From a virus (lineage: Duplodnaviria; Heunggongvirae; Uroviricota; Caudoviricetes), in the IMG/VR virus record IMGVR_UViG_2563366819_000003, positions 1-55,732 of that record: DNA of 55,732 nt; one strand, given 5' to 3'. The notes under the pieces were generated by a model that was given only the letters and a program-made list of their open reading frames with translations, was not told the DNA's origin and made no database searches. Below are positions 5,042 through 55,732 of this stretch, one piece after another; positions within the stretch are counted from its first letter, which is position 1; every line of letters starts with the position of its first letter. The position numbers were made by a program, and so were the translations under genes.

Positions 5042-5170
5042 GGATAAACTCCTGAAATTTTGATGTGCGGATCCAGACAGTGCGTTAACTGCATAGTTGT
5101 TTGAATGAACTCGCTTGATTAATCAAAATGTTGGATCACACTATGTCTTGCTCAAAATCTGATAAATAAG

Positions 5171-5485: not shown

Positions 5486-5489
5486 GTAG

Positions 5490-5780
5490 TTAGTGGCTCA
5501 GACCACCGCCAGTACCATTCAGGTAAACCTCCACGAGCAAATCTTTTGTGTACGTTCGTTCGATGCCGCGATGCAAGTAAAGCCGACCGCGCAAATTAGC
5601 TGATGCCGTCCAGGTACCATCTTTGTGTTTAACCAGCATACCTGGCCGGACGGCACCGCGATTAACGGTCTGAGTTCCGTAATGTTGATGAACCATAAAA
5701 ACTCCTGCCCGTAAGCTGGGCTGCTGAACATATAGAGACTTCTGCGCGTATTCAGGCGGTGGATGGCCGCCGGTTGTCAT
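5490..5780 (-). CDS. Hypothetical protein (first ORF downstream of presumed pL)
   Basis: 96-aa ORF, convergent with 5171..5485; occupies the position where an N-like gene would be expected but lacks an Arg-rich N-terminus. Confidence 0.35.
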   Translation of the reverse strand: MTTGGHPPPEYAQKSLYVQQPSLRAGVFMVHQHYGTQTVNRGAVRPGMLVKHKDGTWTASANLRGRLYLHRGIERTYTKDLLVEVYLNGTGGGLSH

Positions 5781-6291
5781 AACTAAGCCGCCTCGTTGAA
5801 GCGACTAAGGTATGAAATGTTGAGTTAATTTCAGCTGGTCACACCGACGTTCACGCGTCCGTTTCACCCCTCGCACTCCCCGAAGCCTGCTGAAATTCAA
5901 ACTGCGGATCTAAGCGGTCATCGCAACGGTGAATCAGGTAGTTGCCGTATCGTTGTGTTGTTGCGATGAACTTATTTAAAACTATAGTTGTTTTATCGTC
6001 AACAACAAAAGTTGTTTTATTGGTTGTTTTAGATATAACTGGTTGTATTTAGGATGGATTTATTTTGTGACTTGAATCGCATAGCGATAACTGAAGCGAG
6101 GTTATGGTGGTTTTTTTAACGGTGTGTGTGATGAGGGGAGGGCAAAAGAAAACCCGGCACGGTGACCGGGATTCTTACGCCGTTAGGTAAAGATATTATT
6201 GCGGTGGCTTAATATTACTACCTAGAGCAAAGATAGGAATTAGTTCTTTACTGAATGAGCACAATGCCCAGTTGATAATTTTTAATTGGTA

Positions 6292-6981
6292 CTACCCATG
6301 CTTCCTATATGTCTGCGGCATGCTCCCAATAACCTTACCGAAGATGAACACCCGGTTCATCTCGTCTTTCTCGATCGGGTCCCACGGTGAGTAGCTTTTG
6401 TTATCAGAGATGACCAGCAGCTTATCCTTCATCATTTGCAGGCGCTTTACATGGGCTGTGTCGTCGTACAGAAACGCATAGATACCATCACCGTCGAAAG
6501 ATTTAACTGTGATATCAACGAACAGCAGATCACCTGGTTCGATCGTTCCTGACATGCTGTCACCACGCACGTTAATGATGCGGATATTTTCCGCCTTCCT
6601 ACCATCGAACATGTGACGAGCATCGTCAAACGAGTACTCAACCGAGCGTAGAACTTCTACAAACTCACGGTTGATGACTCCCGGCCCAGCACTGACTTCT
6701 ATATCAAGAACGTCAATCTTGAAGTATTTGGAATGGCTGACAGTTGATTGTATTGGTTGCACTGTACTGTCTGACATATTTCCAACGCCAGAAGATAACC
6801 ATTCTGCGCGCACACCCAAAGCGTTCGCGATCTCCACGATTTTAGTTGTTTGATTAGCTTTCCCTGTTTCGATTTTCTGAATAGCAGCCTGGCTAACCCC
6901 GACCAAATCCCCAAGCGCCTTTTGTGTAAGGCCTCGCGCTAATCTGGCTTCTTTAAGTCTTTCTGAGAGTGTTGTTTTCAT
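6292..6981 (-). CDS. cI: CI-like prophage repressor (HTH_XRE + LexA-like S24 peptidase domain)
   Basis: N-terminal HTH (LSERLKEARLARGLTQKALGDLVGVSQAAIQKIETGK) and C-terminal S24 signature (VRGDSMSGTIEPGDLLFVD ... KRL); divergent from cro-like gene. Start chosen at MKTTL. Confidence 0.85.
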   Translation of the reverse strand: MKTTLSERLKEARLARGLTQKALGDLVGVSQAAIQKIETGKANQTTKIVEIANALGVRAEWLSSGVGNMSDSTVQPIQSTVSHSKYFKIDVLDIEVSAGPGVINREFVEVLRSVEYSFDDARHMFDGRKAENIRIINVRGDSMSGTIEPGDLLFVDITVKSFDGDGIYAFLYDDTAHVKRLQMMKDKLLVISDNKSYSPWDPIEKDEMNRVFIFGKVIGSMPQTYRKHG

Positions 6982-7085
6982 AGTCCAAATGTACAACCAA
7001 GGTTTTATTCCATCAAACGAAAATGGTTGTTGACTAAAAACAACCATAGTTTTAATCTTGATTCAAATTAACCACGGAGGTTGTT
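6982..7085. promoter_or_regulatory. Divergent pRM/pR-type promoter-operator region between repressor and cro-like gene
   Basis: 104-bp intergenic region containing inverted repeats ATGGTTGTT ... AACAACCAT; position between divergently transcribed repressor and cro. Confidence 0.5.
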
Positions 7086-7316
7086 ATGAACCCAGCTATC
7101 AAAACAGCGATCAGTATCGTTGGTTCACAAAAGAAACTGGGCGCTGCTTGCAAAGTTTCACAGCAGGCCGTCTATAAGTGGCTTCACAACAAAGCAAAGG
7201 TATCCCCTGAACATGTCGGCAGCATTGTTACGGCTACTGGTGGAGTAGTGAAGGCATACCAGATTCGCCCGGATCTTCCGAAGTTGTTTCCACACACCGA
7301 AAAGAACGCAGCTTAA
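7086..7316 (+). CDS. Cro-like HTH repressor (YdaS family)
   Basis: 76 aa, HTH (KKLGAACKVSQQAVYKWL), first gene rightward of repressor. Confidence 0.75.
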   Translation: MNPAIKTAISIVGSQKKLGAACKVSQQAVYKWLHNKAKVSPEHVGSIVTATGGVVKAYQIRPDLPKLFPHTEKNAA

Positions 7317-7385
7317 ATTTCCATTTCACGCTCTTTAACAATAAGCAATCAACTTAACAGTCAATTCAAACTAAAGGAGTCAATT

Positions 7386-9878: not shown

Positions 9879-12800
9879 ATGACCACTGTGAATAAAAAGT
9901 TAAAAAAAACTGCATCTGGCGCGATTACATGGTCAGTAATTGTTACCCAGATATTATCTCCAGTTTCTCTTTCTTTGATTCCGGCAAACAGTTTTGCATC
10001 GTCTGATAATAAAGATGTTACGCAAATTTATGCTAGCGATGAGCGTGCAAATAAAGTGGCCTCATTTGCAGTAAGTGCAGGTCAGAGTCTGGCGAATAAT
10101 AATGCAAGTAGTTTTGCTGTAAATACTTTATCAACTCAGGCGACAAAAGAGGTCGTCGATTGGTTGCAACAATATGGCAATGCGCGCATCAAGCTTAATG
10201 TCGATGATTCTTTTTCCTTGAAGGATTCATCATTCGACTTTTTATATCCATGGCTGGATACTCAGGATTATGTGCTATTCAGTCAAACATCACTACATCG
10301 TACTGATGACCGTAATCAGACCAATATTGGTTTGGGGATTCGTCATTTCACTCCTGATAATGCAATGTTGGGTGCGAATGTTTTCTACGATTATGATTTA
10401 AGTCGCAGCCACTCTCGCGCAGGTTTTGGGGTTGAGTACTGGAGAGATTATTTCAGGCTTGGTGTAAATACCTATTTTGGTTTATCTGACTGGAAGGACA
10501 GTCGGGATATTGATGATTATCTGGAAAGACCCGCAAATGGCTGGGATTTTTCTGCTGAAGGATGGCTACCTGCTTATCCGCAATTAGGGGCATCTATTCA
10601 GTTTGAAAAATATTATGGTAAAAATGTCGGATTATTTGGAAGCGATAATCTGCAGGAAAACCCTTACGCAGTTACTGGGGGAATTTCTTATACACCAGTT
10701 CCTCTGATTAAGTTTTCTGCACAGCATAAGCAAGGACAGAGCAACGTTCACGATACAACCTTTGGTGTTGAGTTTAATTACCGCCCAGGCGTTTCCCTTG
10801 CTGAACAGCTTAGCAGTGACAATGTTGCAGTTATGCGAGAAGTCCAGAACCGGCGTTATGATTTTGTTGAACGAAATAACAACATTGTTCTGGAGTACAA
10901 GAAGAAGCATGCACTGAAAATCAGCTTACCAGAGTCTGTTCAGGGGGATGGCGAATCAATCATCCCTGTAACACTGACAATCAACAATGCCAGTGGTGGT
11001 ATCAAGTCTGTACAGTGGAATGATAGTGTATTCACTGCGGCTGGCGGTAAGATCAGTGGAAATGGCACATCATGGCAGGTCACTTTACCGGCTTATAAAA
11101 GCGAAGGTGTAAATTCGTGGAATGTTGGAGCCACGGTCCAGGATAATAGAGGCAACGTTTCCAACTATGCGGTGATGAATATTAGCGTTATTAATAGTGG
11201 TGTCTCGACAGCGGATTCTTCTTTTATGTTGGATGGAGATTCATCTCCGACGATCTCTGCTGATGGTCAATCCACTCATCCAATAGTATTAAGCCTGAAA
11301 GACAGTAACGGTAAGGCATTAACCGGACTGGCTGATGACATTGAAATGTCAGTGGAATTTACTGCGGATAGCAATAGTGCTCGACAGCGTGAAACGGTAA
11401 CTGCCCCGTCATTAGGCGCGGTAGAGGAAATCTCTGCTGGTGTATATCGCTCTGTTCTGACTGCTGGTTCGCAGGCTGGCACAGTACGTGTAACAGCAAA
11501 AGTTCAGGGAAAAACCTTTACTTTGAATATTAAGCAGGCAGCCGTTATTGATAGTGATGTCTCGACAGCGGATTCTTCTTTTACGTTGGATGGTGATTCG
11601 TCTCCGACGATCTCTGCTGATGGTCAATCCACTCATCCAATAGTATTAAGCCTGAAAGACAGTAACGGTAAGGCATTAACCGGACTGGCTGATGACATTG
11701 AAATGTCAGTGGAATTTACTGCGGATAGCAATAGTGCTCGACAGCGTGAAACGGTAACTGCCCCGTCATTAGGCGCGGTAGAGGAAATCTCTGCTGGTGT
11801 ATATCGCTCTGTTCTGACTGCTGGTTCGCAGGCTGGTACGGTACGTGTAACTGCAAAAGTAATGGATAAAACATTTACTCTCAGTATTAAGCAAACAGCA
11901 GCAACAGAACCTGATTCTGAGGTCAGTGCTGTTTTAACCGCTGCACCAGCAGAACAGGTAGTTGGTTACAATATCAATCTACAACTGGCAGTGAAGGATT
12001 CACAAGGAAATGCAATCACTGGTGATAACACTCTGAGCTTTTATGCTCTTAACCAGGCAGAAGGAGTCGAGTTTGGGGCTGTAACGGAAAAAGACGGTGT
12101 CTATAGCGCGACAGTAACTTCAAAACGAGCTGGTAAGATTCGGATCGGTGTTAAATCGGGTAGTCACAATTTCTCAGGTATTGAGAAAGAAATCTCCTTT
12201 ATTGAAGATCGAACACAGTTCGCATTCTCTCGTATTGAAGCCAGTAAAAATAATGCATTGGCTGACGGCAAACAACAGAATACGGTGACTGTAAGCCTTG
12301 CAGATCGTTTCGGCAATGTTGTGCCCGGTTATGCTGTTACGCTGTCCTTACCTGCGGGGGTAACTCAAGTTGGTGGTGAACATGCTGTGTCAACTGACGA
12401 AAACGGTAATGCTGTTTTTGCGTTAATAAGCTCCACTCCGGGTTCTTACGTGATTAAAGCTCATGCTGGTTCTCAGATGTCTACTGAGTTAACAGTAACC
12501 TTTGCATCAAATATGATCGGAGCTTCACTGTCACTGACGCCTGGAAACAGTAGCTTAATTTCCAATATTCCTGCTAATGGTAAGGATGCTGCGGTATTGA
12601 ATGTGCAACTGACAAATACGAATGCGTCGGTCAATGGACAGAAGATTCAGCTCATCACCTCATCTGAAGGATTGTCTGTACCGACAAATATCGTGACTGA
12701 TTCAACAGGGCATGTTTCCGTACCACTTACAACGGTGAGAGCTGGTGAGTATACGGTGGCTGCACGAGTGACTGACGGTTCCCATAGTGTGGAGTCTGGC

Positions 12801-13787
12801 AGCGTTAAGTTAACTTTTGTACCAGATGCTGCTTCCGCAGAACTTACTATGAGTACATCAAAACAGCAGATTGTGGCCGATGGTAGTGAAAGTGCAACAG
12901 TGGACATTCAGTTGGTTGATGCCAATAACAATGCGTTTACAGGCGATGTGGATTTAACGGTTACACCATCGACGGGAGCATCATTGACCAGTAGTAAACT
13001 GCAGTTGGATGCTCATGGACAGGCAACAACGCAGTTCACAGCATCGAAATCAGGCCAGTACACAATTCAGGCTGAGTATGTTCTAGATGGGAAACGTATA
13101 ACCGCAAGCAAAAATATTGATGCCGTGACGGATGTGAAGGAGGCTGTGTTGGAGATCACATCATCTGCATCTTCGGCTGTAGTGAGCGATACCAACAATC
13201 TGATATTTACGTTACTGTTGAAAAGTACGTCAGGCGAAGTATTAAGTGGTCGAGTATTGAATATCAAGGCATCTGGGCCGTCCAAATATGGTGCGTTGGT
13301 GGTTGATAAAACCACTGTAACGACTGATGAGTATGGTCTGGCTACGGTAAGCGTACATGGTCGAACGGCTGGTTCGTATAAATTAACGGCGACCTTAGAT
13401 GAACTTGGCAGTGATGTTAGTGAGGTGAAGTCATTCTCTCTGTATGCTGATGAGGCAAATGGAGTATTGACACTGCATAAAGATGGAGGCTATGACACAG
13501 ATGATGGTACTCCAGTGGGGGTTTATGCCCGATTTGTTGACCATTTCGGCAATCCGTTATCTGGTACGGTTGAGTTTTCTGCTGGTAGTGAAGATAGTCC
13601 AAACTCTCAACGGGTTAAAATGGAGCCTGCTACAGTAACGTTACACTGGACAGGTAATGCAGCCTCGGAGTTCAGCACCTATGAAAGCGGTTATCACTGG
13701 ATTAAGGCCAAAATAACGAACAGCAAAAATACATATGAGAAAACAATAAGGACTTATGTTGTAAAGCTCCCTGAAAAGGATAGTTAA
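9879..13787 (+). CDS. Intimin/invasin-family inverse autotransporter adhesin with multiple Big (bacterial Ig-like) domains
   Basis: 1302 aa; N-terminal signal-like segment, beta-barrel region typical of inverse autotransporters (WLQQYGNARIKLNVDD...), then repeated Ig-like modules including a tandem 119-aa duplication; AT-rich upstream region and terminator downstream. Confidence 0.8.
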   Translation: MTTVNKKLKKTASGAITWSVIVTQILSPVSLSLIPANSFASSDNKDVTQIYASDERANKVASFAVSAGQSLANNNASSFAVNTLSTQATKEVVDWLQQYGNARIKLNVDDSFSLKDSSFDFLYPWLDTQDYVLFSQTSLHRTDDRNQTNIGLGIRHFTPDNAMLGANVFYDYDLSRSHSRAGFGVEYWRDYFRLGVNTYFGLSDWKDSRDIDDYLERPANGWDFSAEGWLPAYPQLGASIQFEKYYGKNVGLFGSDNLQENPYAVTGGISYTPVPLIKFSAQHKQGQSNVHDTTFGVEFNYRPGVSLAEQLSSDNVAVMREVQNRRYDFVERNNNIVLEYKKKHALKISLPESVQGDGESIIPVTLTINNASGGIKSVQWNDSVFTAAGGKISGNGTSWQVTLPAYKSEGVNSWNVGATVQDNRGNVSNYAVMNISVINSGVSTADSSFMLDGDSSPTISADGQSTHPIVLSLKDSNGKALTGLADDIEMSVEFTADSNSARQRETVTAPSLGAVEEISAGVYRSVLTAGSQAGTVRVTAKVQGKTFTLNIKQAAVIDSDVSTADSSFTLDGDSSPTISADGQSTHPIVLSLKDSNGKALTGLADDIEMSVEFTADSNSARQRETVTAPSLGAVEEISAGVYRSVLTAGSQAGTVRVTAKVMDKTFTLSIKQTAATEPDSEVSAVLTAAPAEQVVGYNINLQLAVKDSQGNAITGDNTLSFYALNQAEGVEFGAVTEKDGVYSATVTSKRAGKIRIGVKSGSHNFSGIEKEISFIEDRTQFAFSRIEASKNNALADGKQQNTVTVSLADRFGNVVPGYAVTLSLPAGVTQVGGEHAVSTDENGNAVFALISSTPGSYVIKAHAGSQMSTELTVTFASNMIGASLSLTPGNSSLISNIPANGKDAAVLNVQLTNTNASVNGQKIQLITSSEGLSVPTNIVTDSTGHVSVPLTTVRAGEYTVAARVTDGSHSVESGSVKLTFVPDAASAELTMSTSKQQIVADGSESATVDIQLVDANNNAFTGDVDLTVTPSTGASLTSSKLQLDAHGQATTQFTASKSGQYTIQAEYVLDGKRITASKNIDAVTDVKEAVLEITSSASSAVVSDTNNLIFTLLLKSTSGEVLSGRVLNIKASGPSKYGALVVDKTTVTTDEYGLATVSVHGRTAGSYKLTATLDELGSDVSEVKSFSLYADEANGVLTLHKDGGYDTDDGTPVGVYARFVDHFGNPLSGTVEFSAGSEDSPNSQRVKMEPATVTLHWTGNAASEFSTYESGYHWIKAKITNSKNTYEKTIRTYVVKLPEKDS
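11197..11910 (+). repeat. Near-perfect tandem duplication (2 x about 357 bp) encoding a duplicated Ig-like domain within the adhesin gene
   Basis: Sequence from about 11201 (tgtctcgacagcggattcttctttt...) recurs at about 11558 almost identically; encoded peptide VSTADSSF.LDGDSSPTISADGQSTHPIVLSLKDSNGKALTGLADDIEMS... is repeated. Confidence 0.85.
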
Positions 13788-16148: not shown

Positions 16149-17231
16149 TTAGAACTGATACACCAGACCTACAGCGACGATGTCGTCGGTATCAATACCA
16201 GCTGTTTTGGTAAACTTACTATCGTCAATTAAGTTGATTTTGTAATCAACAAAAGTGGACATGTTTTTATTAAAGTAGTAAGTAGCACCGACATCGACAT
16301 ACTTGACTAAGTCTCGGTCACCATGAACACCAAGGTCTTTACCTTTTGACTGAAGGTAAGCAACAGATGGTCGCAGACCGAAGTCAAACTGATATTGTGC
16401 TACTGCTTCAAAGTTTTGTGCTTTGTTTGCAATATGGTTATTACCAAAAACGGTCATATTCTGAGTTTCAGAATATGTGGTAGCCAGATAGATATTGTTC
16501 GCATCATATTTCAGGCCTGCAGCCCATACTTCCGCATTTTTGCCGGAGGCATTGAATTTGCTCTTACCATAGGCGACCTGACCGTCAGTGCGATCTGATT
16601 TAGCATAGGTTGCACCCACGCCGAATCCTTCATACTCATAAGTAGTGGAGAAACCGAAACCATCACCATTGGCTTCAGTTACGTCAGTGCGGTCATTTTT
16701 ACCCTGATACTGAGCAGCAAAGTTCAGGCCATCGACCAGACCAAAGAAGTCGTTGTTACGATAGGTTGCAACACCAGTGGTGCGACCAGTCATGAACACA
16801 TCTGTTTGGGTCCAGGTATCGCCACCGAATTCTGGCAGAACGTCAGTCCACGCACCGATGTCGTATGCTACACCGTAGTTACGGCCGTAATCGATTGAGC
16901 CGTAGTCACCGAATTTCAGGCCTGCAAATGCAAGACGGGTTTTGTCTTTGGAGGAACCTTGAGATTCAGCGCGGTTGCCTTTGAATTCATATTCCCACTG
17001 ACCGAAACCAGTCAGTTGATCGTTGATTTGGGTTTCACCTTTGAAGCCAAGACGGGCATAAGTAGTATCACCATCATCTGCATCGTTAGAGGAAAAGTAG
17101 TGCTTGGCATTAACTTTCCCGTACAGATCCAGCTTGTTACTGTCTTTATTATAAATTTCAGCTGCCTGAGCAGACATCGCCATCAGTACTGATGCAGCTA
17201 CAGCAGAAATTGCCACTGTTAATTTTTTCAT
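16149..17231 (-). CDS. nmpC: Outer-membrane general porin (OmpC/OmpF/NmpC family), intact
   Basis: 360 aa, signal peptide [23 protein letters not shown], porin beta-barrel hallmarks and C-terminal ...VGLVYQF; on strand opposite to flanking phage genes, with AT-rich upstream region. Confidence 0.9.
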
Positions 17232-46469: not shown

Positions 46470-49400
46470 ATGGGTAAAGGCAGCAGTAAGGGGCATACCC
46501 CGCGCGAAGCGAAGGACAACCTGAAGTCCACGCAGCTGCTGAGTGTGATCGATGCCATCAGCGAAGGGCCGGTTGAAGGTCCGGTGGACGGATTAAAAAG
46601 CGTGCTGCTGAACAGTACGCCGGTGCTGGACAGTGAGGGGAATACCAATATCTCCGGCGTCACGGTGGTGTTCCGGACCGGTGAGCAGGAGCAGTCACCG
46701 CCGGAGGGATTTGAATCCTCCGGCTCCGAGACGGTGCTGGGTACGGAAGTGAAATATGACACGCCGATCACCCGGACCATCACGTCGACAAACATCGACC
46801 GTCTGCGCTTTACCTTCGGTGTACAGGCACTGGTGGAAACCACCTCAAAGGGGGACCGGAATCCGTCGGAAGTCCGCCTGCTGGTTCAGATACAGCGTAA
46901 TGGTGGCTGGGTGACGGAAAAAGACATCACCATTAAGGGCAAAACCACCTCGCAGTATCTGGCCTCGGTGGTGGTGGATAACCTGCCGCCGCGCCCGTTC
47001 AATATCCGGATGCGCAGGATGACGCCGGACAGCACCACAGACCAGCTGCAGAACAAAACGCTCTGGTCGTCATACACCGAAATCATCGATGTGAAACAGT
47101 GCTACCCGAACACGGCACTGGTCGGCGTACAGGTGGATTCGGAGCAGTTCGGCAGCCAGCAGGTGAGCCGTAATTATCATCTGCGCGGGCGTATTCTGCA
47201 GGTGCCGTCGAACTATAACCCGCAGACTCGGCAATACAGCGGTATCTGGGACGGAACGTTTAAGCCAGCATACAGCAATAACATGGCCTGGTGTCTGTGG
47301 GATATGCTGACCCATCCACGCTACGGCATGGGGAAACGTCTTGGTGCGGCGGATGTGGACAAATGGGCGCTGTATGTCATCGGCCAGTACTGCGACCAGT
47401 CAGTGCCGGACGGCTTTGGCGGCACGGAGCCGCGCATCACCTGTAATGCGTACCTGACCACACAGCGCAAGGCGTGGGATGTGCTCAGTGATTTCTGCTC
47501 GGCGATGCGCTGTATGCCGGTATGGAACGGGCAGACGCTGACGTTCGTGCAGGACCGACCGTCGGATAAGGTGTGGACCTATAACCGCAGTAATGTGGTG
47601 ATGCCGGATGATGGCGCGCCGTTCCGCTACAGCTTCAGCGCCCTGAAGGACCGCCATAATGCCGTTGAGGTGAACTGGATTGACCCGGACAACGGCTGGG
47701 AGACGGCGACAGAGCTTGTTGAAGATACGCAGGCCATTGCCCGTTACGGTCGTAATGTCACGAAGATGGATGCCTTTGGCTGTACCAGCCGGGGGCAGGC
47801 ACACCGCGCCGGGCTGTGGCTGATTAAAACGGAACTGCTGGAGACGCAGACCGTGGATTTCAGCGTGGGTGCTGAAGGGCTTCGCCATGTACCGGGCGAT
47901 GTCATTGAAATCTGCGATGATGACTATGTCGGTATCAGCACCGGTGGTCGCGTGCTGGCGGTGAACAGCCAGACCCGGACGCTGACGCTCGACCGTGAAA
48001 TCACGCTGCCATCCTCCGGTACCACGCTGATAAGCCTGGTTGACGGAAGTGGCAATCCGGTCAGCGTGGAGGTTCAGTCCGTCACCGACGGCGTGAAGGT
48101 AAAAGTGAGCCGTGTTCCTGACGGTGTTGCTGAATACAGCGTGTGGGGGCTGAAGCTGCCGACGCTGCGCCAGCGCCTGTTCCGCTGCGTGAGTATCCGT
48201 GAGAACGATGACGGTACGTATGCCATCACCGCCGTGCAGCATGTGCCGGAAAAAGAGGCCATCGTGGATAACGGGGCGCACTTTGACGGCGAACAGAGTG
48301 GCACGGTGAACGGTGTCACGCCGCCAGCGGTGCAGCACCTGACCGCAGAAGTCACTGCAGACAGCGGGGAATATCAGGTGCTGGCGCGCTGGGACACACC
48401 GAAGGTGGTGAAGGGCGTGAGCTTCCTGCTCCGTCTGACCGTAACAGCGGACGACGGCAGTGAGCGGCTGGTCAGCACGGCCCGGACGACGGAAACCACA
48501 TACCGCTTCACGCAACTGGCGCTGGGGAACTACAGGCTGACAGTCCGGGCAGTAAATGCGTGGGGGCAGCAGGGCGATCCGGCGTCGGTATCGTTCCGGA
48601 TTGCCGCACCGGCAGCGCCGTCGCGGATTGAGCTGACGCCGGGCTATTTTCAGATAACCGCCACGCCGCATCTTGCCGTTTATGATCCGACGGTACAGTT
48701 TGAGTTCTGGTTCTCGGAAAAGCGGATTGCGGATATCAGGCAGGTTGAAACCACAGCCCGCTATCTTGGCACGGCGCTGTACTGGATAGCTGCCAGTATC
48801 AATATCAAACCGGGCCATGATTATTACTTTTATATCCGCAGTGTGAATACTGTTGGCAAATCGGCATTCGTGGAGGCTATCGGTCGGGCGAGCGATGATG
48901 CGGAAGGTTACCTGGATTTTTTCAAAGGAGAGATAGGGAAAACACATCTGGCTCAGGAGCTGTGGACGCAGATTGATAACGGTCAGCTTGCGCCTGACCT
49001 GGCTGAAATCAGGACGTCCATTACGGATGTCAGCAATGAAATCACGCAGACTGTCAATAAGAAACTGGAAGACCAGAGTGCGGCAATCCAGCAGATACAG
49101 AAGGTTCAGGTTGATACAAATAATAACCTGAACAGCATGTGGGCTGTGAAGCTGCAGCAGATGCAGGACGGACGCCTTTATATCGCGGGTATTGGTGCCG
49201 GTATTGAGAACACCCCTGACGGCATGCAGAGTCAGGTGCTGCTGGCGGCGGACAGGATTGCGATGGTTAATCCTGCGAATGGCAACACAAAGCCGATGTT
49301 TGTTGGTCAGGGCGATCAGATATTCATGAACGAAGTGTTCCTGAAATATCTGACGGCTCCCACCATTACCAGCGGCGGTAATCCTCCGGCATTTTCCCTG

Positions 49401-49949
49401 ACACCGGACGGGCGGCTGACGGCGAAAAATGCCGATATCAGCGGTAACGTGAATGCGAACTCCGGGACGCTCAACAACGTCACGATTAACGAGAACTGCC
49501 GGGTTCTGGGAAAACTGTCCGCGAACCAGATTGAAGGCGATCTCGTTAAAACAGTGGGCAAAGCTTTCCCCCGGGACTCCCGTGCACCGGAGCGGTGGCC
49601 ATCAGGAACCATTACCGTCAGGGTTTATGACGATCAGCCGTTTGACCGGCAAATTGTTATCCCGGCGGTGGCATTCAGTGGCGCTAAACATGAGCAAGAT
49701 CATACTGATATCTACTCCTCATGCCGTCTGATAGTACGAAAAAACGGTGCTGAAATTTATAACCGAACGGCTCTGGATAATACGCTGATATATACGGGTG
49801 TTATTGATATGCCTGCAGGCAGTGGTGTCATGACACTGGAATTTTCTGTATCGGCATGGCTGGTAAATGGCTGGTATCCCACAGCAAGTATCAGCGATTT
49901 GCTGGTTGTGGTGATGAAGAAAGCCACCGCAGGCATCAGTATCAGCTGA
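46470..49949 (+). CDS. J: Tail tip / central fibre protein J with divergent C-terminal receptor-binding region
   Basis: N-terminal about 800 aa closely resemble lambda J; the last about 300 aa differ from the lambda LamB-binding domain as recalled; 1159 aa. Confidence 0.9.
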
Positions 49950-49968
49950 ATTTTATAACCCCAATACG

Positions 49969-49992
49969 GGCGTCAGAAATGACGCCTTTTTT
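49969..49992 (+). terminator. Rho-independent terminator after J
   Basis: Hairpin ggcgtcagaaatgacgcc followed by tttttt. Confidence 0.6.
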
Positions 49993-50016: not shown

Positions 50017-50616
50017 ATGCGTAAATTATGTGCTGTTATTCTGTCCGCAGTAGTCTGGCTGGTTGCCGCTGGTACGCCAGCGAGCGCAGCAGAGCATCAG
50101 TCCACACTAAGCGCCGGGTATCTTCAGACCCATACTGATATGCCAGGCAGTGATGACCTGAAGGGCATTAACGTGAAATACCGTTATGAATTTACGGACA
50201 CGCTGGGGCTGGTGACGTCATTCAGTTATGCCAATGCCAAAGATGAGCAAAAAACGCATTACAGCGATACCCGCTGGCATGAAGATTCAGTGCGTAACCG
50301 CTGGTTCAGCATGATGGCGGGGCCGTCTGTACGCGTGAATGAATGGTTCAGTGCTTATGCGATGACGGGTGTGGCTTACAGCCGTGTTTCGACGTTCTCC
50401 GGGGATTATCTCCGCGTAACTGACAGCAAGGGGAAAACGCACGATGTGCTGACCGGAAGTGATGGCGGTCGCCACAGCAACACGTCTCTGGCGTGGGGGG
50501 CTGGCGTGCAGTTTAACCCGACCGAATCCGTGGCCATTGACCTTGCTTATGAAGGTTCCGGCAGTGGCGACTGGCGCACTGACGGTTTCATCGTGGGTGT
50601 CGGTTATAAATTCTGA
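50017..50616 (+). CDS. lom: Lom/Ail-family outer-membrane beta-barrel protein
   Basis: 199 aa, signal peptide, C-terminus ...AYEGSGSGDWRTDGFIVGVGYKF identical to lambda Lom C-terminus as recalled. Confidence 0.88.
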   Translation: MRKLCAVILSAVVWLVAAGTPASAAEHQSTLSAGYLQTHTDMPGSDDLKGINVKYRYEFTDTLGLVTSFSYANAKDEQKTHYSDTRWHEDSVRNRWFSMMAGPSVRVNEWFSAYAMTGVAYSRVSTFSGDYLRVTDSKGKTHDVLTGSDGGRHSNTSLAWGAGVQFNPTESVAIDLAYEGSGSGDWRTDGFIVGVGYKF

Positions 50617-50642: not shown

Positions 50643-50669
50643 AGCCCGTCGGTTCAGGCGGGCTTTTTT
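50643..50669 (+). terminator. Rho-independent terminator after lom
   Basis: Hairpin agcccgtcggttcaggcgggct followed by tttttt. Confidence 0.6.
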
Positions 50670-50674
50670 GTGGA

Positions 50675-53038
50675 GTGGATATGGCAGCAGTAAAAATCTC
50701 AGGTGTGCTGAAAGATGGTGCGGGAAAACCAATACAGAACTGCACTATTCAACTGAAGGCAAAGCGTAACAGCACCACGGTACTGGTGAACACGGTGGCC
50801 TCTGAAAATCCGGATGAAGCCGGGCGTTACAGCATGGATGTTGAGTATGGCCAGTACAGCGTCACCCTGCTGGTTGAAGGTTTTCCGCCTTCACATGCCG
50901 GAACCATTACCGTCTATGAAGGTTCCAGACCAGGTACGCTGAATGATTTTCTCGGTGCCATGACGGAAGATGATGTCATGCCGGAGGCATTGCGTCGTTT
51001 TGAGGCAATGGTGGAAGAAGCGGCACGCAACGCCGAAGCCGCCTCTCAGAGCGCAGCGGTGGCAAAGAAATCCGAAACTGCAGCGGCATCATCGAAGAAC
51101 GCGGCGAAAACCTCAGAAACGAATGCAGCTAACAGCGCACAGGCGGCAGCGACCTCACAGACTGCATCGGCAAACTCCGCGACAGCAGCCAAAAAATCAG
51201 AAACCAACGCGAAAAACAGCGAGACAGCCGCAAAGACGAGCGAAACCAACGCAAAGTCCAGCCAGACGGCAGCGAAAACCAGCGAAACGAATGCCAAAGC
51301 CAGTGAAACTGCGGCGAAAAACAGCCAGGCTGCAGCAGCTGAAAGCGAGAGCGCGGCGGCCGGTTCTGCGACTTCAGCAGCCGGATCAGCAACTGCTGCG
51401 GCTAACAGTCAGAAAGCAGCGAAGACGAGTGAAACTAACGCAAAGTCCAGCCAGACGGCAGCGAAGACCAGCGAAACGAATGCCAAAGCCAGCGAAACTG
51501 CAGCGAAAAGCAGTCAGGATGCAGCAGCCGAAAGCGAGAGTGCTGCAGCTGGTTCTGCAACAGCGGCAGCTAATAGCCAAAAAGCTGCAAAAGCCAGTGA
51601 AACTAACGCAAAGACGAGTGAAACAAAAGCAGCAGCTAGCGAGACAGAAGCAACGTCAGCCGCAACAAGAGCAGAGAATGCAGCCCGGATTGCAGAAGAT
51701 GCCGCTGATCCTGCTTCTGTCCCTCCGCTTCCTGATATCTGGCTACCCTTGAATGATTCTCTGGAAGCGATAACAGGGTATGCCCCGGGCTATAAAACAA
51801 TAACCATCGGCAGTGATGAAATAACAATGCCTGTTAATGGCATATGCCAATTTAGCCGGGCTTCATCTGCAACGTATATTGATAAGTCCGGGCATATTAC
51901 CGTGGCAGGGAATAACGTTCCTCGTTTTGAAAAATATGGTTTTCTGATAGAGAATCAGCGAACAAACATGTTCGTAAATAGTTTTAATCCTGATGCCTGG
52001 AATAAAAGCGGTGGTATATCTGTAACATCATCAACAGATGAATTTGAGTTTAAATATGGACGTTTCACAGTAGGAAGCGACATAGCAGGAACGACAACAG
52101 GGAGAAATATATGCACAGTTGCTGGTAATAAAGGCATAGATGTGACTGGCGATGATCAGTACAGTAAAGGTCCGTATGTTACCGCGTCGTTCAGGGTAAG
52201 AAGTGATCTCAATGTTCGCGCACGTATCCGTTTTGAACGGTATAACTCGGAAGGATACACTTTCCTTTGTGACGCCTATTTGTCATTACAGACCCATGAA
52301 CTACAAATTACGGGTGGTAATGCCCAGCTATTAACAGCAAACTTTGAAATCGATCCAGGTAGTGGATGGATATATTTTCAGGCAACCCTGAAATGTCTGC
52401 CAGAATGGGGAATGGTTGGTACGCAGTTGCAAATTGCAGCCGACAGAGCTGTGGGGTCTTTTGCAACAGGTGACTGGATAGAAGTAACCACCCCGCAATT
52501 TGAGTATGGTGCTTGTGCAACATCCTTTATCATAACGACAACAGAGCCAGCTACTCGTGCATCAGATTTATGTAAATTTCCGCTGATGAAAAATATGTAT
52601 ACCATGCCTTTTACGTTCATGGTGGAAGTCCATAAAAACTGGTTTATTTCTCATAATGCTGCACCGCGTGTCATTGATTCAGAAAATCACCAGTCCGGGG
52701 GCCCATTTATTATGGGGTTTGGTTCTTCTGGAACTATTAGTCAGGACGGTTATTCGTATTGCGATATAGGCGGGGCTAACCGACGTGTATATGAGTCATG
52801 CGGAGTAAGAGATCTCGTTATGGGATTCAGGGTTAAGGCTGACGGCATGACATGCTCATTTGCAAATAAGCATATAAGCACAGAAACAAAAACAGTATGG
52901 AAATATATTCGTGAAGCTGCCGTGATTCGTATCGGGGGGCAAACGACGACAGGATTACGACACCTTAATGGTCATATAAAAAACCTCCGTTTCTGGAACA
53001 GAGCATTGTCAGATACGCAGCTTAAGGAATACGTATAA
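50675..53038 (+). CDS. stf: Side tail fibre protein: lambda Stf-like N-terminus, Ala/Ser/Thr-rich repetitive shaft, lectin-like (LamG/ConA-like) C-terminus
   Basis: N-terminus MAAVKISGVLKDGAGKP.QNCTIQLKA.RNSTTV as lambda Stf; internal repeats of ETNAK.S.TAAKTSE units; C-terminal motif NLRFWNRALSDTQLKEY resembles the (I/V)R(I/F)(Y/W)NRALS signature of LamG-like domains. Confidence 0.8.
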   Translation: MDMAAVKISGVLKDGAGKPIQNCTIQLKAKRNSTTVLVNTVASENPDEAGRYSMDVEYGQYSVTLLVEGFPPSHAGTITVYEGSRPGTLNDFLGAMTEDDVMPEALRRFEAMVEEAARNAEAASQSAAVAKKSETAAASSKNAAKTSETNAANSAQAAATSQTASANSATAAKKSETNAKNSETAAKTSETNAKSSQTAAKTSETNAKASETAAKNSQAAAAESESAAAGSATSAAGSATAAANSQKAAKTSETNAKSSQTAAKTSETNAKASETAAKSSQDAAAESESAAAGSATAAANSQKAAKASETNAKTSETKAAASETEATSAATRAENAARIAEDAADPASVPPLPDIWLPLNDSLEAITGYAPGYKTITIGSDEITMPVNGICQFSRASSATYIDKSGHITVAGNNVPRFEKYGFLIENQRTNMFVNSFNPDAWNKSGGISVTSSTDEFEFKYGRFTVGSDIAGTTTGRNICTVAGNKGIDVTGDDQYSKGPYVTASFRVRSDLNVRARIRFERYNSEGYTFLCDAYLSLQTHELQITGGNAQLLTANFEIDPGSGWIYFQATLKCLPEWGMVGTQLQIAADRAVGSFATGDWIEVTTPQFEYGACATSFIITTTEPATRASDLCKFPLMKNMYTMPFTFMVEVHKNWFISHNAAPRVIDSENHQSGGPFIMGFGSSGTISQDGYSYCDIGGANRRVYESCGVRDLVMGFRVKADGMTCSFANKHISTETKTVWKYIREAAVIRIGGQTTTGLRHLNGHIKNLRFWNRALSDTQLKEYV
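51226..51550 (+). repeat. Tandem coding repeats within stf shaft region
   Basis: Block gcaaagtccagccagacggcagcgaa(a/g)accagcgaaacgaatgccaaagccag(t/c)gaaactgc(g/a)gcgaaaa recurs about 180 bp later. Confidence 0.7.
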
Positions 53039-53307
53039 TGCGGGATATAACATTACGATTCGATAACAGAGAACAGTTTAACGCAATTGTATATGACAGT
53101 GGCCTGTTCAGTCTTGAAGAAGAAAATGGGGTTCTTGTTGATGTTATTGGCTGCATTATCGATTACGAGGAGCCAGAAAACGAAAGATGTACAGGCATTG
53201 ATCGCGGTGGTTTTTTCGTAAACATGAGGATTGTTGATGGCAGTAAAAACATATCTTCTTTAATGCCTTTCATTACGACAGATCAGCATGTAAGGACATG
53301 GGCTTAA
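53038..53307 (+). CDS. Hypothetical protein downstream of stf
   Basis: 89-aa ORF with start overlapping stf stop; no recognisable motif. Confidence 0.35.
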   Translation: MRDITLRFDNREQFNAIVYDSGLFSLEEENGVLVDVIGCIIDYEEPENERCTGIDRGGFFVNMRIVDGSKNISSLMPFITTDQHVRTWA

Positions 53308-53319
53308 TGGAGTAAGACA

Positions 53320-54003
53320 ATGGTTACAAAAACAGTAATTCCGGGAGACATCACCACGCTAAAGGGAGATATTTCCTCAATTAACGGAAAAGTATCAACG
53401 CTTCAGACTGAGATGACCAGTGCAAAGCAGGATATCAGCTCCAGATACACAAAAACTGAAGTTGATAATAAGCTGAAAAACAAACTGGAAGTGAATGCTC
53501 TCGAAAGCGGTAATTATGGTGGAGATTTTTACCCGCTGACTGGCCGCGAAGCGTTTTATTTATGGGGGTTGGGCACGACTACTGCGGCGGCAAACCTTTA
53601 TCTTAATCCTGACCCTGCAATTTCGTCTGTACTGCGGTCAACATCGTCTATCCGCTATAAACATTCAGTAGAGACGATAGATTCAGAGCACGCCGATGTC
53701 ATTTTCAGGATGCGCCCTGTGTGGTACAGGTCGCAATGCGAAAATGACAGGCGTGACTGGGGGTTCTACGGATTGATTGCCGAGGAAGTAGGAGAAATTG
53801 CCCCTCAGTTTGTACACTGGCGACCAGCTAACGAAGATGATGCTCCTGAAGCTATTTCCAGCAATGGCCTTGTTGCCGAAGGTGTAATGTACGAACGTCT
53901 GGTTGTTCCACTGATTCACCATATCCAGAAGCTGACAGAAAGAGTTGATGAACTTGAGTCAGAATTAAAGTTGTTATTAACTTCCCGAAGCGATATCGGA
54001 TAA
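53320..54003 (+). CDS. Short fibre-like protein with C-terminal intramolecular-chaperone (peptidase S74-like) domain
   Basis: 227 aa; N-terminal coiled-coil-like segment, then block SSIRYKHS...RMRPVWYR...WGFYGLIAEEVGEIAPQFV...LVVPLIHHIQKLTERVDELESEL resembling S74 autoproteolytic chaperone domains of tail fibres. Confidence 0.5.
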   Translation: MVTKTVIPGDITTLKGDISSINGKVSTLQTEMTSAKQDISSRYTKTEVDNKLKNKLEVNALESGNYGGDFYPLTGREAFYLWGLGTTTAAANLYLNPDPAISSVLRSTSSIRYKHSVETIDSEHADVIFRMRPVWYRSQCENDRRDWGFYGLIAEEVGEIAPQFVHWRPANEDDAPEAISSNGLVAEGVMYERLVVPLIHHIQKLTERVDELESELKLLLTSRSDIG

Positions 54004-54013
54004 AGGAGGAATA

Positions 54014-54307
54014 ATGGATATAACACCTTTCCTTCATGCACTTTGTGCTGTGGCTGCGCAGGTACTGGTTGGTCTTTTTACCGGAAACTGGGCTTACGGG
54101 GCGATAGCCGGTTGTACGTTCTTCATTGCGCGTGAACACACCCAGGCAGAATATCGCTGGATCGAAATGTTCGGGCATGGCAAGCGAATGAATATGCCGT
54201 GGTGGGGCGGTTTTGATCCGCGCGCGTGGGATGTGGCAAGCCTGATGGATTTTGCTGTGCCGGTGGTGGCGTGTCTGCTGGTCTGGCTGTTGGTTAATCG
54301 TGGGTGA
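54014..54307 (+). CDS. Hypothetical small membrane protein
   Basis: 97 aa with two hydrophobic segments (ALCAVAAQVLVGLF and FAVPVVACLLVWLLV). Confidence 0.4.
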   Translation: MDITPFLHALCAVAAQVLVGLFTGNWAYGAIAGCTFFIAREHTQAEYRWIEMFGHGKRMNMPWWGGFDPRAWDVASLMDFAVPVVACLLVWLLVNRG

Positions 54308-54982
54308 AAAAAGGTGAGCTGTATATGCAACGGAGGAAGAAAACTCGTTGCTGGAAGCCTGGAAAAAGTATCGGGTGCTGCTAAACCGTGTGGACACTTC
54401 CGTAGCACCAGATATCGAGTGGCTTATTCAACCATAATAAACAGTATGTATATCATAGGTTATTAATTGTGAGTTTTTTCGGTGTGTTATTTGTTTGTTT
54501 GATGTTATGCTTTTGCGCCCCAAAAGGTTGTTTAGATGTATTTTATCAATTGATTTTCAATGTCGTTTAATAAAGAAAAATTAAGCAAGCTGGATGTTGG
54601 TTTTTTGTTAATTGAATGGTTCTAATAATGTTTTTTTACTGTTGTTGAATGTGACTTGATAAGAAATGCAAGTAAAAATGATACTCTTTTTATTTTAAAT
54701 TCAAACGGTTGACATATATATAGCAAGAGGTTTCAGGTGCGTTGTAGTGAGTTTATGTTAATAAAAAGTATAGTAAGCGTTGAAAAATGTAACTTTGAAA
54801 TACGTTAGAATAAAAAACAATATACATATAATAATTTAATCTTAAATGAAATTTATTAAAATTTGCAAACTATAATTTTGTGTATAAAAATATAAATGCA
54901 CATCATCCTGATTATGATTGTGTATTTAATTGGTTGTTATTTGACTGCTATCAACTTGTTTTAATTTTATGATAGGTGCAAG

Positions 54983-55732
54983 ATGGATTATGTTTGCTCC
55001 GTAGTTTTCATCTGTCAATCATTTGATTTAATTATAAACAGGAGAGTTATCTCGTTCAAAAAAAATTCATTGTTTATTGTAAGCGACAAAATTAGAAGGG
55101 AGTTACCAGTATGCCCCTCTAAACTAAGAATTGTTGATATAGATAAGAAAACATGTTTATCCTTTTTTATCGACGTGAATAATGAGCTGCCTGGCAAATT
55201 TACTCTTGATAAGAATGGCTATATTGCTGAAGAGGAACCTCCATTATCGCTTGTTTTTTCTCTGTTTGAAGGGATTAAAATAGCAGACTCACACTCCCTT
55301 TGGTTAAAAGAAAGACTATGTATATCCTTACTTGCCATGTTCAAAAAACGCGAAAGTGTAAATTCATTTATACTAACAAATATAAATACATTTACCTGTA
55401 AAATTACTGGAATAATCAGTTTTAATATTGAGCGGCAATGGCATTTAAAAGATATTGCGGAATTGATTTATACGAGTGAAAGTTTAATAAAAAAAAGATT
55501 AAGGGATGAAGGAACGTCATTTACTGAAATATTGAGAGATACTAGGATGAGGTATGCAAAAAAACTCATAACTTCAAACTCTTATTCTATCAATGTCGTA
55601 GCCCAGAAATGTGGCTATAACAGTACTTCATATTTCATATGTGCATTTAAAGATTATTATGGTGTCACGCCATCTCATTATTTTGAGAAAATAATCGGCG
55701 TCACAGATGGAATAAACAAAACAATTGACTGA
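54983..55732 (+). CDS. appY: AraC-family transcriptional activator AppY
   Basis: 249 aa, AT-rich gene with C-terminal AraC-type HTH ([33 protein letters not shown]); matches AppY as recalled; stop at window end. Confidence 0.85.

Follow-up and report, generated by a model that had tools for sequence, protein, structure and literature searches.

The window analysed here, a stretch of viral DNA of 55,732 nucleotides, carries on its plus strand an uninterrupted open reading frame at positions 50675 to 53038, which encodes 787 aa when begun at the GTG at 50675. The start is probably the ATG at 50681 (785 aa), since a GGAG sequence lies 6 nt upstream, the annotation of PhiR55_1 starts there, and the alignment with lambda Stf begins there; residues of Stf are numbered from GTG 50675. 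With gpJ at 46470–49949, Ail/Lom at 50017–50616 and stf from 50681, the gene occupies the lambdoid late-operon position after J and lom, and the PHROG 1419 profile ('tail protein') spans the product end to end (residues 4–787 to profile positions 1–793 of 793). The gene is the side tail fibre gene (stf) of an apparently complete E. coli lambda-like prophage, located at the appY/ompT end of the DLP12 locus. The features of the region are:

50643–50664, plus strand: terminator-like hairpin and T-run, after lom and directly 5′ of stf (8-bp stem with 6 GC pairs, then TTTTTTG)
50681–53038, plus strand: stf coding sequence from the probable ATG, 785 aa
50687–50965, plus strand: N-terminal collar (virion attachment) domain, residues 5–97, from the match to PDB 9e7m_Ta and PF08400
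50978–51709, plus strand: heptad-repeat shaft rich in Ala, Ser, Thr, Lys and Glu, residues ~102–345, from composition and register modulo 7
51181–51631, plus strand: tandem DNA repeats within the shaft (Tandem Repeats Finder, 42-bp and 189-bp periods)
51710–51850, plus strand: proline-rich neck or conserved junction (PLPDxWxPxNDSL), residues 346–392, conserved in 50 homologues
51851–52561, plus strand: predicted jelly-roll domain 1, residues ~393–629, first and last strands conserved, body (446–605) hypervariable
52562–53035, plus strand: predicted jelly-roll domain 2, LamG/Laminin_G_3-like, residues 630–787, ending in a short helix (780–786)
52982–53011, plus strand: NLRFWNRALS motif, residues 770–779, final β-strand of domain 2, with the turn leading to the C-terminal helix
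53038–53307, plus strand: 89-aa acidic partner gene, its ATG overlapping the stf stop codon (TAATG); PHROG 1361, function unknown
53320–54003, plus strand: 227-aa second fibre protein with N-terminal peptide MVTKTVIPGDITTLK, short coiled coil, small tip and C-terminal S74 intramolecular chaperone
54014–54307, plus strand: 97-aa hydrophobic ORF, PHROG 1443, 92–100% conserved in related loci; membership of the fibre unit uncertain

The N-terminus of Stf is of the lambda type, as the first-pass annotation had proposed. Residues 5–134 matched the Pfam family PF08400 (phage_tail_N) with an E-value of 3.1e-66 (221.9 bits against a cut-off of 26.6), and in a PDB sequence search residues 5–97 aligned with the 94-residue tail fiber chain 9e7m_Ta (E = 7e-49), which is the collar domain of Ur-lambda gpStfN (PMC12617516). 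In Ur-lambda, the collar on the tail tip consists of twelve copies of gpStfN residues 1–91 (PMC12617516). By close homology to this solved structure, residues 1 to ~97 of the present Stf likewise form a collar domain that anchors the fibre to the tail tip.

The shaft that follows is composed of 36% Ala, 17% Ser, 13% Thr, 10% Lys and 9% Glu. From residue 143 to 304 it contains 14 copies of the motif AA[KA].S[EQ], all at position 3 modulo 7, and the register is unbroken. In the DNA, Tandem Repeats Finder detected repeats within 51181–51631 whose units measure 42 bp (14 aa) and 189 bp (63 aa); they score as high as 562 at 88% matches, far above chance. The low-complexity tandem-repeat shaft expected from first inspection was thus recovered, more exactly as a heptad-periodic one, together with the long spurious ORFs that the repeats were said to create in other frames, namely a plus-strand ORF of 260 aa (50970–51752) and three minus-strand ORFs of 64–87 aa. 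One ~56-aa repeat block is missing from the IdasGreatGrand homologue, and the length of Stf in related loci ranges from 786 to 802 aa; through unequal recombination between the tandem DNA repeats, the length of the shaft may shift. In a PDB sequence search the shaft resembled the helical bundle of DT57C LtfA (8hqz_d; PMC10713586), and its counterpart in Ur-lambda Stf is the proximal trimeric coiled coil of residues 102–393 (PMC12617516). From the constant heptad register, the Ala-rich composition and the likeness to the LtfA bundle and the lambda coiled coil, we infer that the shaft is a trimeric coiled coil.

At the C-terminus, a jelly-roll domain of the LamG/ConA type had been proposed. Structure prediction indeed returned this fold: the AlphaFold model of residues 346–787, a monomer, had a pLDDT of 90.9 (72–88 across the neck) and contained two β-domains with a two-sheet jelly-roll fold, in agreement with the Laminin_G_3 and NF048003 profiles. 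While the fold was correctly anticipated, its description as a single domain was not, since two domains lie in tandem and the upstream one belongs to the NF048003 family. NCBIfam NF048003 (phage/GTA head spike fibre domain) matched residues 424–629 over profile positions 1–181 of 182 with 47.9 bits against a curated cut-off of 36, and PGAP applies its product name to the identical gene. The head-spike role is not matched by Stf, whose N-terminus is a lambda tail collar and whose gene is in tail fibre position; as read from its domains, Stf has the GTA spike-fibre domain but not the capsid-vertex attachment role. In domain 2, the strand at model residues 142–150 (Stf 766–774) overlaps the start of NLRFWNRALS, around which the consensus of the homologue family reads GHIRNxRIWxxALTDxQ. 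Pfam Laminin_G_3 (PF13385) aligned residues 735–783 with profile positions 103–150 of 151 at E = 2.9e-4 and 21.5 bits, below the gathering threshold of 27.6, and was matched by 39 of the 50 aligned homologues (best E = 1.9e-11). The NLRFWNRALS stretch aligns with the last third of this profile and shows the highest conservation within the last domain across the 50 homologues. In these, both jelly rolls combine a conserved frame, which together with the neck comprises residues 351–361, 393–431, 606–631 and 765–782, with hypervariable bodies, and many database proteins have in common only the neck and the first strands of domain 1. A PDB sequence search with the whole of Stf gave no match for residues 350–787, for which matches were obtained only by fold comparison and with the family profile. 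The profile matched pentraxin-like and BoNT Hcn chains, and the best fold-comparison matches were ligand-binding modules, with enzymes ranking well below non-catalytic binding modules. We discounted a Pfam Beta_helix match in the tip (E = 0.03), since the confident model contains no β-helix. According to this prediction, the coiled coil would end at the neck, beyond which each chain would continue as two ConA-like jelly rolls in tandem.

A Pfam search of Stf found neither Phage_fiber_2 nor a gp37-like domain, and none of the next three genes 3′ of stf was identified as Caudo_TAP in Pfam, PHROG and NCBIfam searches; in the RefSeq annotation, tfa is represented by no more than a 111-bp remnant farther along (~54327–54437). 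With no tfa gene other than this remnant 3′ of stf, the tip is other than the usual Tfa-dependent one, as suspected beforehand. It is not, however, free of partners, as stf is translationally coupled to a conserved gene of ~90 aa, after which comes a second small fibre gene. The 89-aa protein had no match in Pfam or NCBIfam, and its PDB matches were at chance level only (E about 1). A gene of ~90 aa lies directly 3′ of the tip module in lambda-like, T5-like, P2-like, Dhillonvirus, Warwickvirus, Nonagvirus and rV5-like phages. In a mirror-tree style comparison of pairwise identities, for which the sample of loci, like that behind the third-gene counts below, consisted mostly of E. coli lambdoid prophages, the tip correlated with the small ORF at r = 0.85 and with the body of the third gene at r = 0.18. 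This comparison indicates joint inheritance of the tip and the small ORF, whose co-variation could reflect mere physical adjacency rather than functional co-evolution. Given the translational coupling and the co-variation, the 89-aa protein may be the cognate partner of the tip, acting as a chaperone or tip subunit in place of Tfa.

The 227-aa protein matched PF13884 (Peptidase_S74) over residues 109–165 with 26.8 bits against a cut-off of 22, and it matched the C-terminal residues 952–1068 of DT57C LtfA (8hqz_d; E = 1.6e-5), which we take to be the chaperone end of LtfA. Its SSIRYK aligns with SDSRLK of IrisVonRoten bas32_0024 as a predicted S-x-x-R-x-K cleavage motif, and cleavage would leave a product of ~109 residues. 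A match to the last ~240 positions of the 1385-aa PHROG 3299 raised the reading of this ORF as the leftover 3′ end of a longer stf. We rejected it, since full-length homologues of similar size are maintained in IdasGreatGrand (234 aa, 91% identical) and in the Drexlerviridae phage MartyMcPhage (Warwickvirus; 224 aa, 55% identical), and since the N-terminal peptide is common to much larger third-gene proteins. The third ORF begins with M[VA]T.T.IP.DI..LK in 71 of 74 loci, so that this peptide is constant while the body is interchangeable, being a chaperone-bearing stub of 224–234 aa, the 574-aa T-shaped receptor-binding protein of IrisVonRoten, or a gp34/gp37-like fibre with its own Tfa. Among the loci there are natural pairs in which the tip is identical and the third gene differs. 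The 97-aa ORF comes after the third gene in most lambdoid loci, regardless of which third gene is present. What follows stf is accordingly a second fibre gene whose product has the conserved N-terminal peptide, no known anchor domain and, as judged from the genes, a putative attachment. The gene neighbourhood suggests a two-part or branched fibre, in which the 227-aa protein would be a second, interchangeable mini-fibre whose constant N-terminal peptide docks onto the conserved frame of the tip, the 89-aa protein, or both.

Phage records with the tip module number 218 and represent at least seven lineages, and more than 1,800 cluster representatives also contain the module. It has been shuffled among the fibres of lambda-like, T5-like, P2-like, rV5-like, Dhillonvirus, Drexlerviridae and Queuovirinae phages, and it is widespread yet experimentally unstudied and without a solved structure. 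The Stf of Ur-lambda shares with the present one the position after J and lom, the near-identical collar sequence (residues 5–97) and an Ala-rich proximal coiled coil. In lambda, however, the fibre goes on through a hinge to a gp37-like distal domain and a tip that depends on Tfa and reportedly binds OmpC, whereas the present coiled coil ends in two ConA-like jelly rolls, with no tfa and three different small genes next. The same three-gene unit is present in the lateral fibre locus of the T5-like phage IrisVonRoten (Bas32; bas32_0022, 0023 and 0024). Its 796-aa fibre has a SETNAK-type shaft and is 45% identical to the present Stf over a 743-residue alignment of shaft and tip (about 50% for the tip alone), the next ORF (92 aa) is 33% identical to the 89-aa protein, and the third protein starts with MVTKTVIPTDITKLK and, like the 227-aa protein, ends in an S74 chaperone. 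IrisVonRoten differs in that the N-terminus of the fibre attaches to a T5-type LtfC collar rather than a lambda collar, and in that its third protein is not a 227-aa stub but a 574-aa T-shaped dual receptor-binding protein linked to the O16 antigen. According to the BASEL authors, this T-shaped protein connects to the long proximal fibre (PMC11990801).

Three further systems are related in part. The DT57C and DT571/2 branched fibres (LtfA and LtfB) are alike in concept, as a tail-anchored proximal fibre with its own receptor-binding region holds a second fibre by its N-terminus, the present locus being known from its genes. Both systems have S74 intramolecular chaperones, and sequence similarity to LtfA is limited to the coiled coil of Stf and the C-terminal chaperone-domain region of the 227-aa protein. 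In DT57C, the two proteins join in the middle of the fibre, at a region related to phiEco32 gp14/gp15, and not at a C-terminal jelly-roll pair, and the parts of the DT57C source available to us mention no ~90-aa partner gene. The non-catalytic ConA-like modules (AbnA domain 4, BoNT/TeNT Hcn, CBM40, pentraxins, LamG/LNS) are just 6–17% identical in sequence to the tip and do not share its context of a trimeric phage fibre; the likeness is one of fold. The head spike fibre of RcGTA (Rcc01080) belongs to NF048003, whose curated cut-off is exceeded by jelly-roll domain 1 of the present Stf, and is described as a two-domain, β-rich, lectin-like protein with an extended N-terminal anchor. It sits on the capsid vertex by ten N-terminal residues, without collar or coiled coil, in an alphaproteobacterial gene transfer agent. 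As the closest tested relative, this two-domain β-protein has capsule-enhanced cell binding (PMC10218006).

A conserved frame with hypervariable bodies and the shuffling of the module among phages form the pattern that would be expected of a receptor-binding domain, and from the fold and its homology the tip may bind glycans. The hypervariable jelly-roll bodies would then contact a surface polysaccharide, be it O-antigen, LPS core or capsule, and with three heads per fibre this initial contact would be multivalent and reversible, preceding the engagement of the receptor by gpJ. We lean towards this overall proposal, of a collar–shaft–jelly-roll fibre with a glycan-binding tip and partner genes, with some confidence. 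In the literature, we found no binding experiment for any member of this tip family, and nothing specific on PhiR phages, on LamG/ConA domains in lambdoid Stf, or on the receptor for this type of tip. ConA-like folds are also known to bind proteins, which counts against a glycan. So does the reported use of OmpC by lambda Stf (PMC12617516).

Alternatively, the jelly rolls could be mainly a structural hub or hinge that forms, with the ~90-aa protein, a socket for the N-terminal peptide of the distal fibre, leaving host recognition to the distal protein. That peptide is kept across phages with otherwise unrelated tails (lambda-like, T5-like, P2-like, Dhillonvirus, Drexlerviridae and Queuovirinae), which have in common only two possible partners for it, the tip module and the small protein, and the third-gene products are without any known virion-attachment domain. 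Moreover, recognition of O16 by IrisVonRoten is credited to the distal T-shaped protein (PMC11990801), and a BFVD search matched the tip weakly (rank 36, TMq 0.38) to a protein labelled 'hinge connector of long tail fiber'. Yet the jelly-roll bodies are hypervariable while the peptide to be held is nearly constant, which is the signature of a host-facing surface and not of a socket, and the tip and small ORF occur without the third gene in rV5-like FFH2 and several prophage loci. As the capsule-enhanced binding of the RcGTA fibre and the ligand-binding modules among the top structural matches also speak against it, we regard a mainly structural tip as unlikely.

We find it still harder to accept that the tip binds an outer-membrane protein instead of a glycan, like lambda Stf with OmpC. 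LamG and pentraxin-type jelly rolls often make protein–protein contacts, and rough laboratory strains are listed as hosts of phages with near-identical fibres; with both E. coli C and K-12 among these hosts, binding of O-antigen would be unnecessary on either. The tip, however, has no similarity to the gp37-like tip of lambda, the homologous GTA fibre has the capsule-enhanced binding described above, and the lateral fibres bearing the module in T5-like phages and small siphoviruses are generally regarded as targeting O-antigen. Even Ur-lambda Stf appears also to use unmodified O16 antigen. An enzymatic role of the ConA-like domains, as a glycanase or lyase of the GH16, PL7 or PL20 type that degrades surface polysaccharide, is very improbable in view of the structural ranking, the position of the invariant residues in terminal framework strands rather than on a cleft-like variable face, and the absence of glycoside hydrolase or lyase family matches in Pfam, NCBIfam and PDB sequence searches. 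That stf is a decaying prophage relic, as implied by the RefSeq annotation of an identical copy (an N-terminal pseudogene plus a 660-aa ORF; in NZ_CP145099, PGAP calls a 'missing C-terminus' pseudogene and then a separate CDS) and as the many partial database entries might suggest, is hardly credible: the NZ_CP145099 DNA is identical to the window across the whole gene and its frame is open throughout, for which reason the PGAP pseudogene reading was rejected, 97–98% identical alleles are annotated as a single gene in deposited phage genome records, and the partial entries, all labelled 'partial', were presumably cut at contig ends.

These alleles, 97–98% identical in DNA, stand in records that list laboratory hosts (PhiR55_1, PhiR47_1 and PhiR11_1), and for this reason the fibre with the putative glycan-binding tip is probably functional. 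The present allele and its three downstream genes are found in 43 of 5,426 complete E. coli genomes. Since near-identical alleles are already deposited and the tip module is so common in phage records, the stf gene itself is not novel; the new point is its neighbourhood, in which the tip is always accompanied by a small partner gene and usually by an exchangeable third gene. More speculatively, the jelly-roll pair and the ~90-aa protein might form a universal, cross-family socket for any distal receptor-binding protein that starts with M[VA]T.T.IP.DI..LK, to which the variable jelly-roll faces would add a second specificity, a possibility that we put forward only tentatively.

The RefSeq split of an intact stf is hereby corrected, and the product name 'head spike fiber' misleads on location. 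Side or lateral fibres set which strains a phage or a phage-derived delivery particle reaches. As the tip appears to be a tandem lectin-fold head inherited together with its own ~90-aa partner, the unit to be transplanted in engineering would comprise the tip and the small gene, with the PLPDxW neck as the joint. Should the third gene product plug into this head by its constant peptide, their junction would already provide a place at which receptor-binding proteins could be exchanged across unrelated phages, and if the socket is truly universal, one plug-and-play host-range junction would be common to lambda-like, T5-like, P2-like, Dhillonvirus, Drexlerviridae and Queuovirinae phages.

The window is an E. 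coli lambdoid prophage in which the side tail fibre gene stf follows gpJ and lom and is succeeded by three small same-strand ORFs. Its relevant features are:

9879-13787 (+): inverse autotransporter, 1302 aa, an intimin/invasin-type adhesin with IAT_beta and Big_1 / Invasin_D3 repeats
16149-17231 (-): general porin (Porin_1, E 1.9e-151)
46470-49949: gpJ
49968-49987: terminator-like hairpin flanking lom
50017-50616: Ail/Lom protein
50643-50664: second terminator-like hairpin flanking lom, between lom and stf
50675-53038 (+): stf ORF
53038-53307: 89-aa acidic ORF
53320-54003: 227-aa ORF, the third gene
54014-54307: 97-aa ORF with hydrophobic stretches (PHROG 1443)
54327-54437: tfa fragment, 111 bp (RefSeq annotation)
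54983-55732: appY

From gpJ through past the fibre genes, the window is identical to E. coli PS_131_S11 (NZ_CP145099). Since appY, ompT and envY follow the fibre region there, the prophage is placed at the right end of the DLP12 locus. The tfa fragment was probably left behind by an earlier Tfa-type fibre end at the same locus. The 97-aa ORF, 92-100% conserved behind the fibre genes in most related lambdoid loci regardless of their third gene, may encode a membrane protein or a moron. The inverse autotransporter gene directly follows the replication genes O and P, an unusual place for cargo, and the porin is comparable to nmpC of DLP12.

The stf ORF begins directly after the hairpin at 50643-50664. 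It proved to be a real gene with an unbroken reading frame, as the first-pass annotation had proposed, except that its start is probably the ATG at 50681, six bases past the GTG chosen there and used here for residue numbering. This ATG was preferred because it has a GGAG at the right spacing and because the homologue in phage PhiR55_1 is annotated from the same codon. RefSeq/PGAP has cut the intact gene on NZ_CP145099.1 into two entries: an N-terminal 'pseudogene, missing C-terminus' (4982-5348; window 50681-51047) and a 660-aa 'phage head spike fiber domain-containing protein' (5360-7339; window 51059-53038), the latter name recurring in 13 of the 15 best-matching genomes. The implied pseudogene was rejected, as that genome and the window have the same DNA over the gene, with no break in the reading frame. 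By sequence, Stf is a member of an existing family, with an end-to-end match to PHROG 1419 and existing NCBI names.

The predicted Stf-like N-terminus was borne out by PF08400 over residues 5-134 (E 3.1e-66). Moreover, the collar domain of Ur-lambda Stf, solved as chain 9e7m_Ta (PMC12617516), aligns with residues 5-97 almost position by position (E 7e-49). In Ur-lambda, the tail tip is ringed by 12 copies of gpStfN residues 1-91, joined by short linkers in threes to give four trimeric fibres (PMC12617516). Homology to this solved structure shows that the collar domain attaches the fibre to the tail. A tandem-repeat shaft was likewise recovered by Tandem Repeats Finder, with 42-bp and 189-bp periods over 51181-51631 (best score 562, 88% identity). 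The off-frame ORFs of 260, 87, 83 and 64 aa, rightly called spurious, exist because of these repeats. Residues 136-345 consist of 36% Ala, 17% Ser, 13% Thr, 10% Lys and 9% Glu, and the motif AA[KA].S[EQ] holds a single register modulo 7 from residue 143 to 304, which gives the shaft the appearance of a continuous coiled coil. This coiled coil would be trimeric; its counterpart in lambda Stf is the proximal coiled coil (lambda residues 102-393), and it resembles the solved three-helix bundle of LtfA from the T5-like phage DT57C. Shaft length differs among relatives through gain or loss of repeat blocks: a block of ~56 aa is absent from phage IdasGreatGrand, and Stf measures 786-802 aa among related loci.

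In the tip (residues 346-787), no above-threshold Pfam family and no PDB sequence match covers residues 350-787. The predicted structure of the tip was confident (pLDDT 90.9, pTM 0.88) and all-beta, with a proline-rich neck, a large domain (~393-611) and a smaller domain (~626-774) followed by a short helix; residues 625-787, modelled separately to check the proposed lectin-like C-terminus, gave a pLDDT of 80.9. Confident prediction and independent sequence profiles thus show both domains as predicted ConA-like jelly rolls, one more than had been proposed. The LamG-type motif NLRFWNRALS is present at residues 770-779 within a Laminin_G_3 match to exactly residues 735-783, but the score of Stf itself (E 2.9e-4) falls under the gathering score; 39 of the 50 aligned homologues match this family (best E 1.9e-11). 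Against the PDB, a last-domain profile gave matches at E 4e-5 to 4e-3, namely to a pentraxin-like domain, an S-layer protein, BoNT/D Hcn and C-reactive protein. In a viral structure library, the two-domain arrangement recurred in many uncultured-phage proteins (TM about 0.6-0.7) labelled 'Concanavalin A-like lectin/glucanases superfamily'. A weak match at BFVD rank 36 (TMq 0.38, E 2e-8) was an Acinetobacter phage 'hinge connector of long tail fiber proximal connector', a T4 gp35-type name. ConA-like or LamG domains are well known in phage adhesins.

Tip homologues numbered 1,397 at 90% clustering and 1,846 representatives at 50% clustering, 37 of the latter with E below 1e-30. Four segments were conserved in the alignment of 50 homologues:

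351-361: PLPDxWxPxNDSL
393-431: ...ATYxxKxG...EPRFE..GLLIEGQRTN
606-631: TPQxExG..ASSFI...TRAsD
765-782: GHIRNxRIWxxALTDxQ

They correspond to the neck and, in each jelly roll, to the opening and closing strands, and the jelly-roll bodies (446-605 and 666-745) are highly variable. A fixed frame with diversifying surfaces is the usual picture in receptor-binding domains, and the conservation of the tip fits it. In a search of 1.8 billion proteins, many matches (35-50% identity) share only the neck and first domain-1 strands (residues 350-445, ~51722-52009) and then diverge, so that this junction seems to serve other distal domains too.

The gene is present almost unchanged in sequenced phages: alleles 97-98% identical in DNA occur in four deposited records (PhiR55_1, PhiR47_1, PhiR11_1 and PhiR11_1_star), and PhiR records with near-identical stf list the laboratory hosts E. 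coli C, ECOR13 and K-12 MG1655. The tip allele with its three downstream genes was found in 43 of 5,426 complete E. coli genomes. At 33-55% identity, the tip ends fibres of other lambda-like, T5-like, Dhillonvirus, Drexlerviridae and Queuovirinae phages, rV5-like myoviruses and P2-like prophages, with 218 phage records in all. The module clearly moves between fibres whose N-terminal anchors are unrelated.

The start of the 89-aa ORF overlaps the stf stop codon (TAATG), and its homologue (PHROG 1361) lies directly behind the tip in every lineage examined, including IdasGreatGrand, the T5-like IrisVonRoten, a P2-like prophage, KarlBarth, FFH2, VSe12, MartyMcPhage and ESCO3, as well as essentially all 80 IMG/VR loci with enough downstream DNA. 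Across 71 distinct gene combinations, tip identity correlated with that of the small ORF at r 0.85 and with that of the third-gene body at r 0.18. The former indicates that tip and small ORF are inherited as one unit, the usual situation for a receptor-binding tip and its chaperone. The third gene opens with M[VA]T.T.IP.DI..LK in 71 of 74 loci having an ORF directly behind the small ORF, and its body takes several forms:

224-234 aa with an S74 intramolecular chaperone, the form in the window
346 aa with an S74 domain
a 574-aa T-shaped dual receptor-binding protein (IrisVonRoten)
a gp34/gp37-like fibre with its own Tfa behind (P2-like locus)

Among loci whose tips are identical, third genes are unrelated or missing, and the rV5-like FFH2 has fibre and small ORF only. 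As far as these comparisons indicate, the third gene forms a cassette of its own, whose N-terminal peptide stays constant. Because its products have no recognisable tail anchor and the peptide is conserved among phages whose tails otherwise share nothing, the most parsimonious interpretation has the peptide docking on the conserved jelly-roll frame, the small protein, or both. The IrisVonRoten protein connects to the long proximal fibre according to the BASEL authors (PMC11990801), and for DT57C a branched LtfA/LtfB arrangement, with a different junction, was established by genetics (PMC4728585). The idea that the 227-aa protein is a relic was rejected: its IdasGreatGrand counterpart shares 91% identity with it, a Drexlerviridae (Warwickvirus) phage encodes a 224-aa protein that is 55% identical to it from end to end, and the S-x-x-R-x-K cleavage motif of the 227-aa protein is intact. 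In Salmonella phage VSe12 (~6083-7032), the third fibre gene looks frameshifted, with the MVTKTVIPTDITKLK... N-terminus in one frame and an annotated 277-aa 'tail fiber protein' in another, reflecting either a pseudogene or a sequencing error.

We consider it fairly probable that these parts form one composite: a collar, a coiled coil, a jelly-roll pair whose ligand would be a glycan, an 89-aa partner that would act as cognate chaperone or tip subunit, and a 227-aa mini-fibre that would dock. The main rival keeps these parts but holds that the jelly rolls do not bind a receptor. This is rather unlikely, given their hypervariable bodies, the loci lacking a third gene, and the behaviour of a gene transfer agent (GTA) homologue. 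Stf residues 424-629 exceed the curated cut-off of NCBIfam NF048003 ('GTA_spike_fiber'), whose namesake is the two-domain, beta-rich, lectin-like head spike fibre of the Rhodobacter capsulatus GTA, a fluorescent fusion of which bound more strongly to capsule-making cells (PMC10218006). Binding of the tip to an outer-membrane protein is less supported and correspondingly more doubtful, and an enzymatic tip, also less supported, is highly improbable.

Only the cross-lineage unit, deduced from genome comparison, would be of specialist interest: a jelly-roll head, a ~90-aa partner whose ORF overlaps the fibre stop codon, and a constant-peptide third gene, conserved in at least six phage lineages (loci L003, L004, L009, L029, L049 and L085-L089) and apparently undescribed in the searchable literature.
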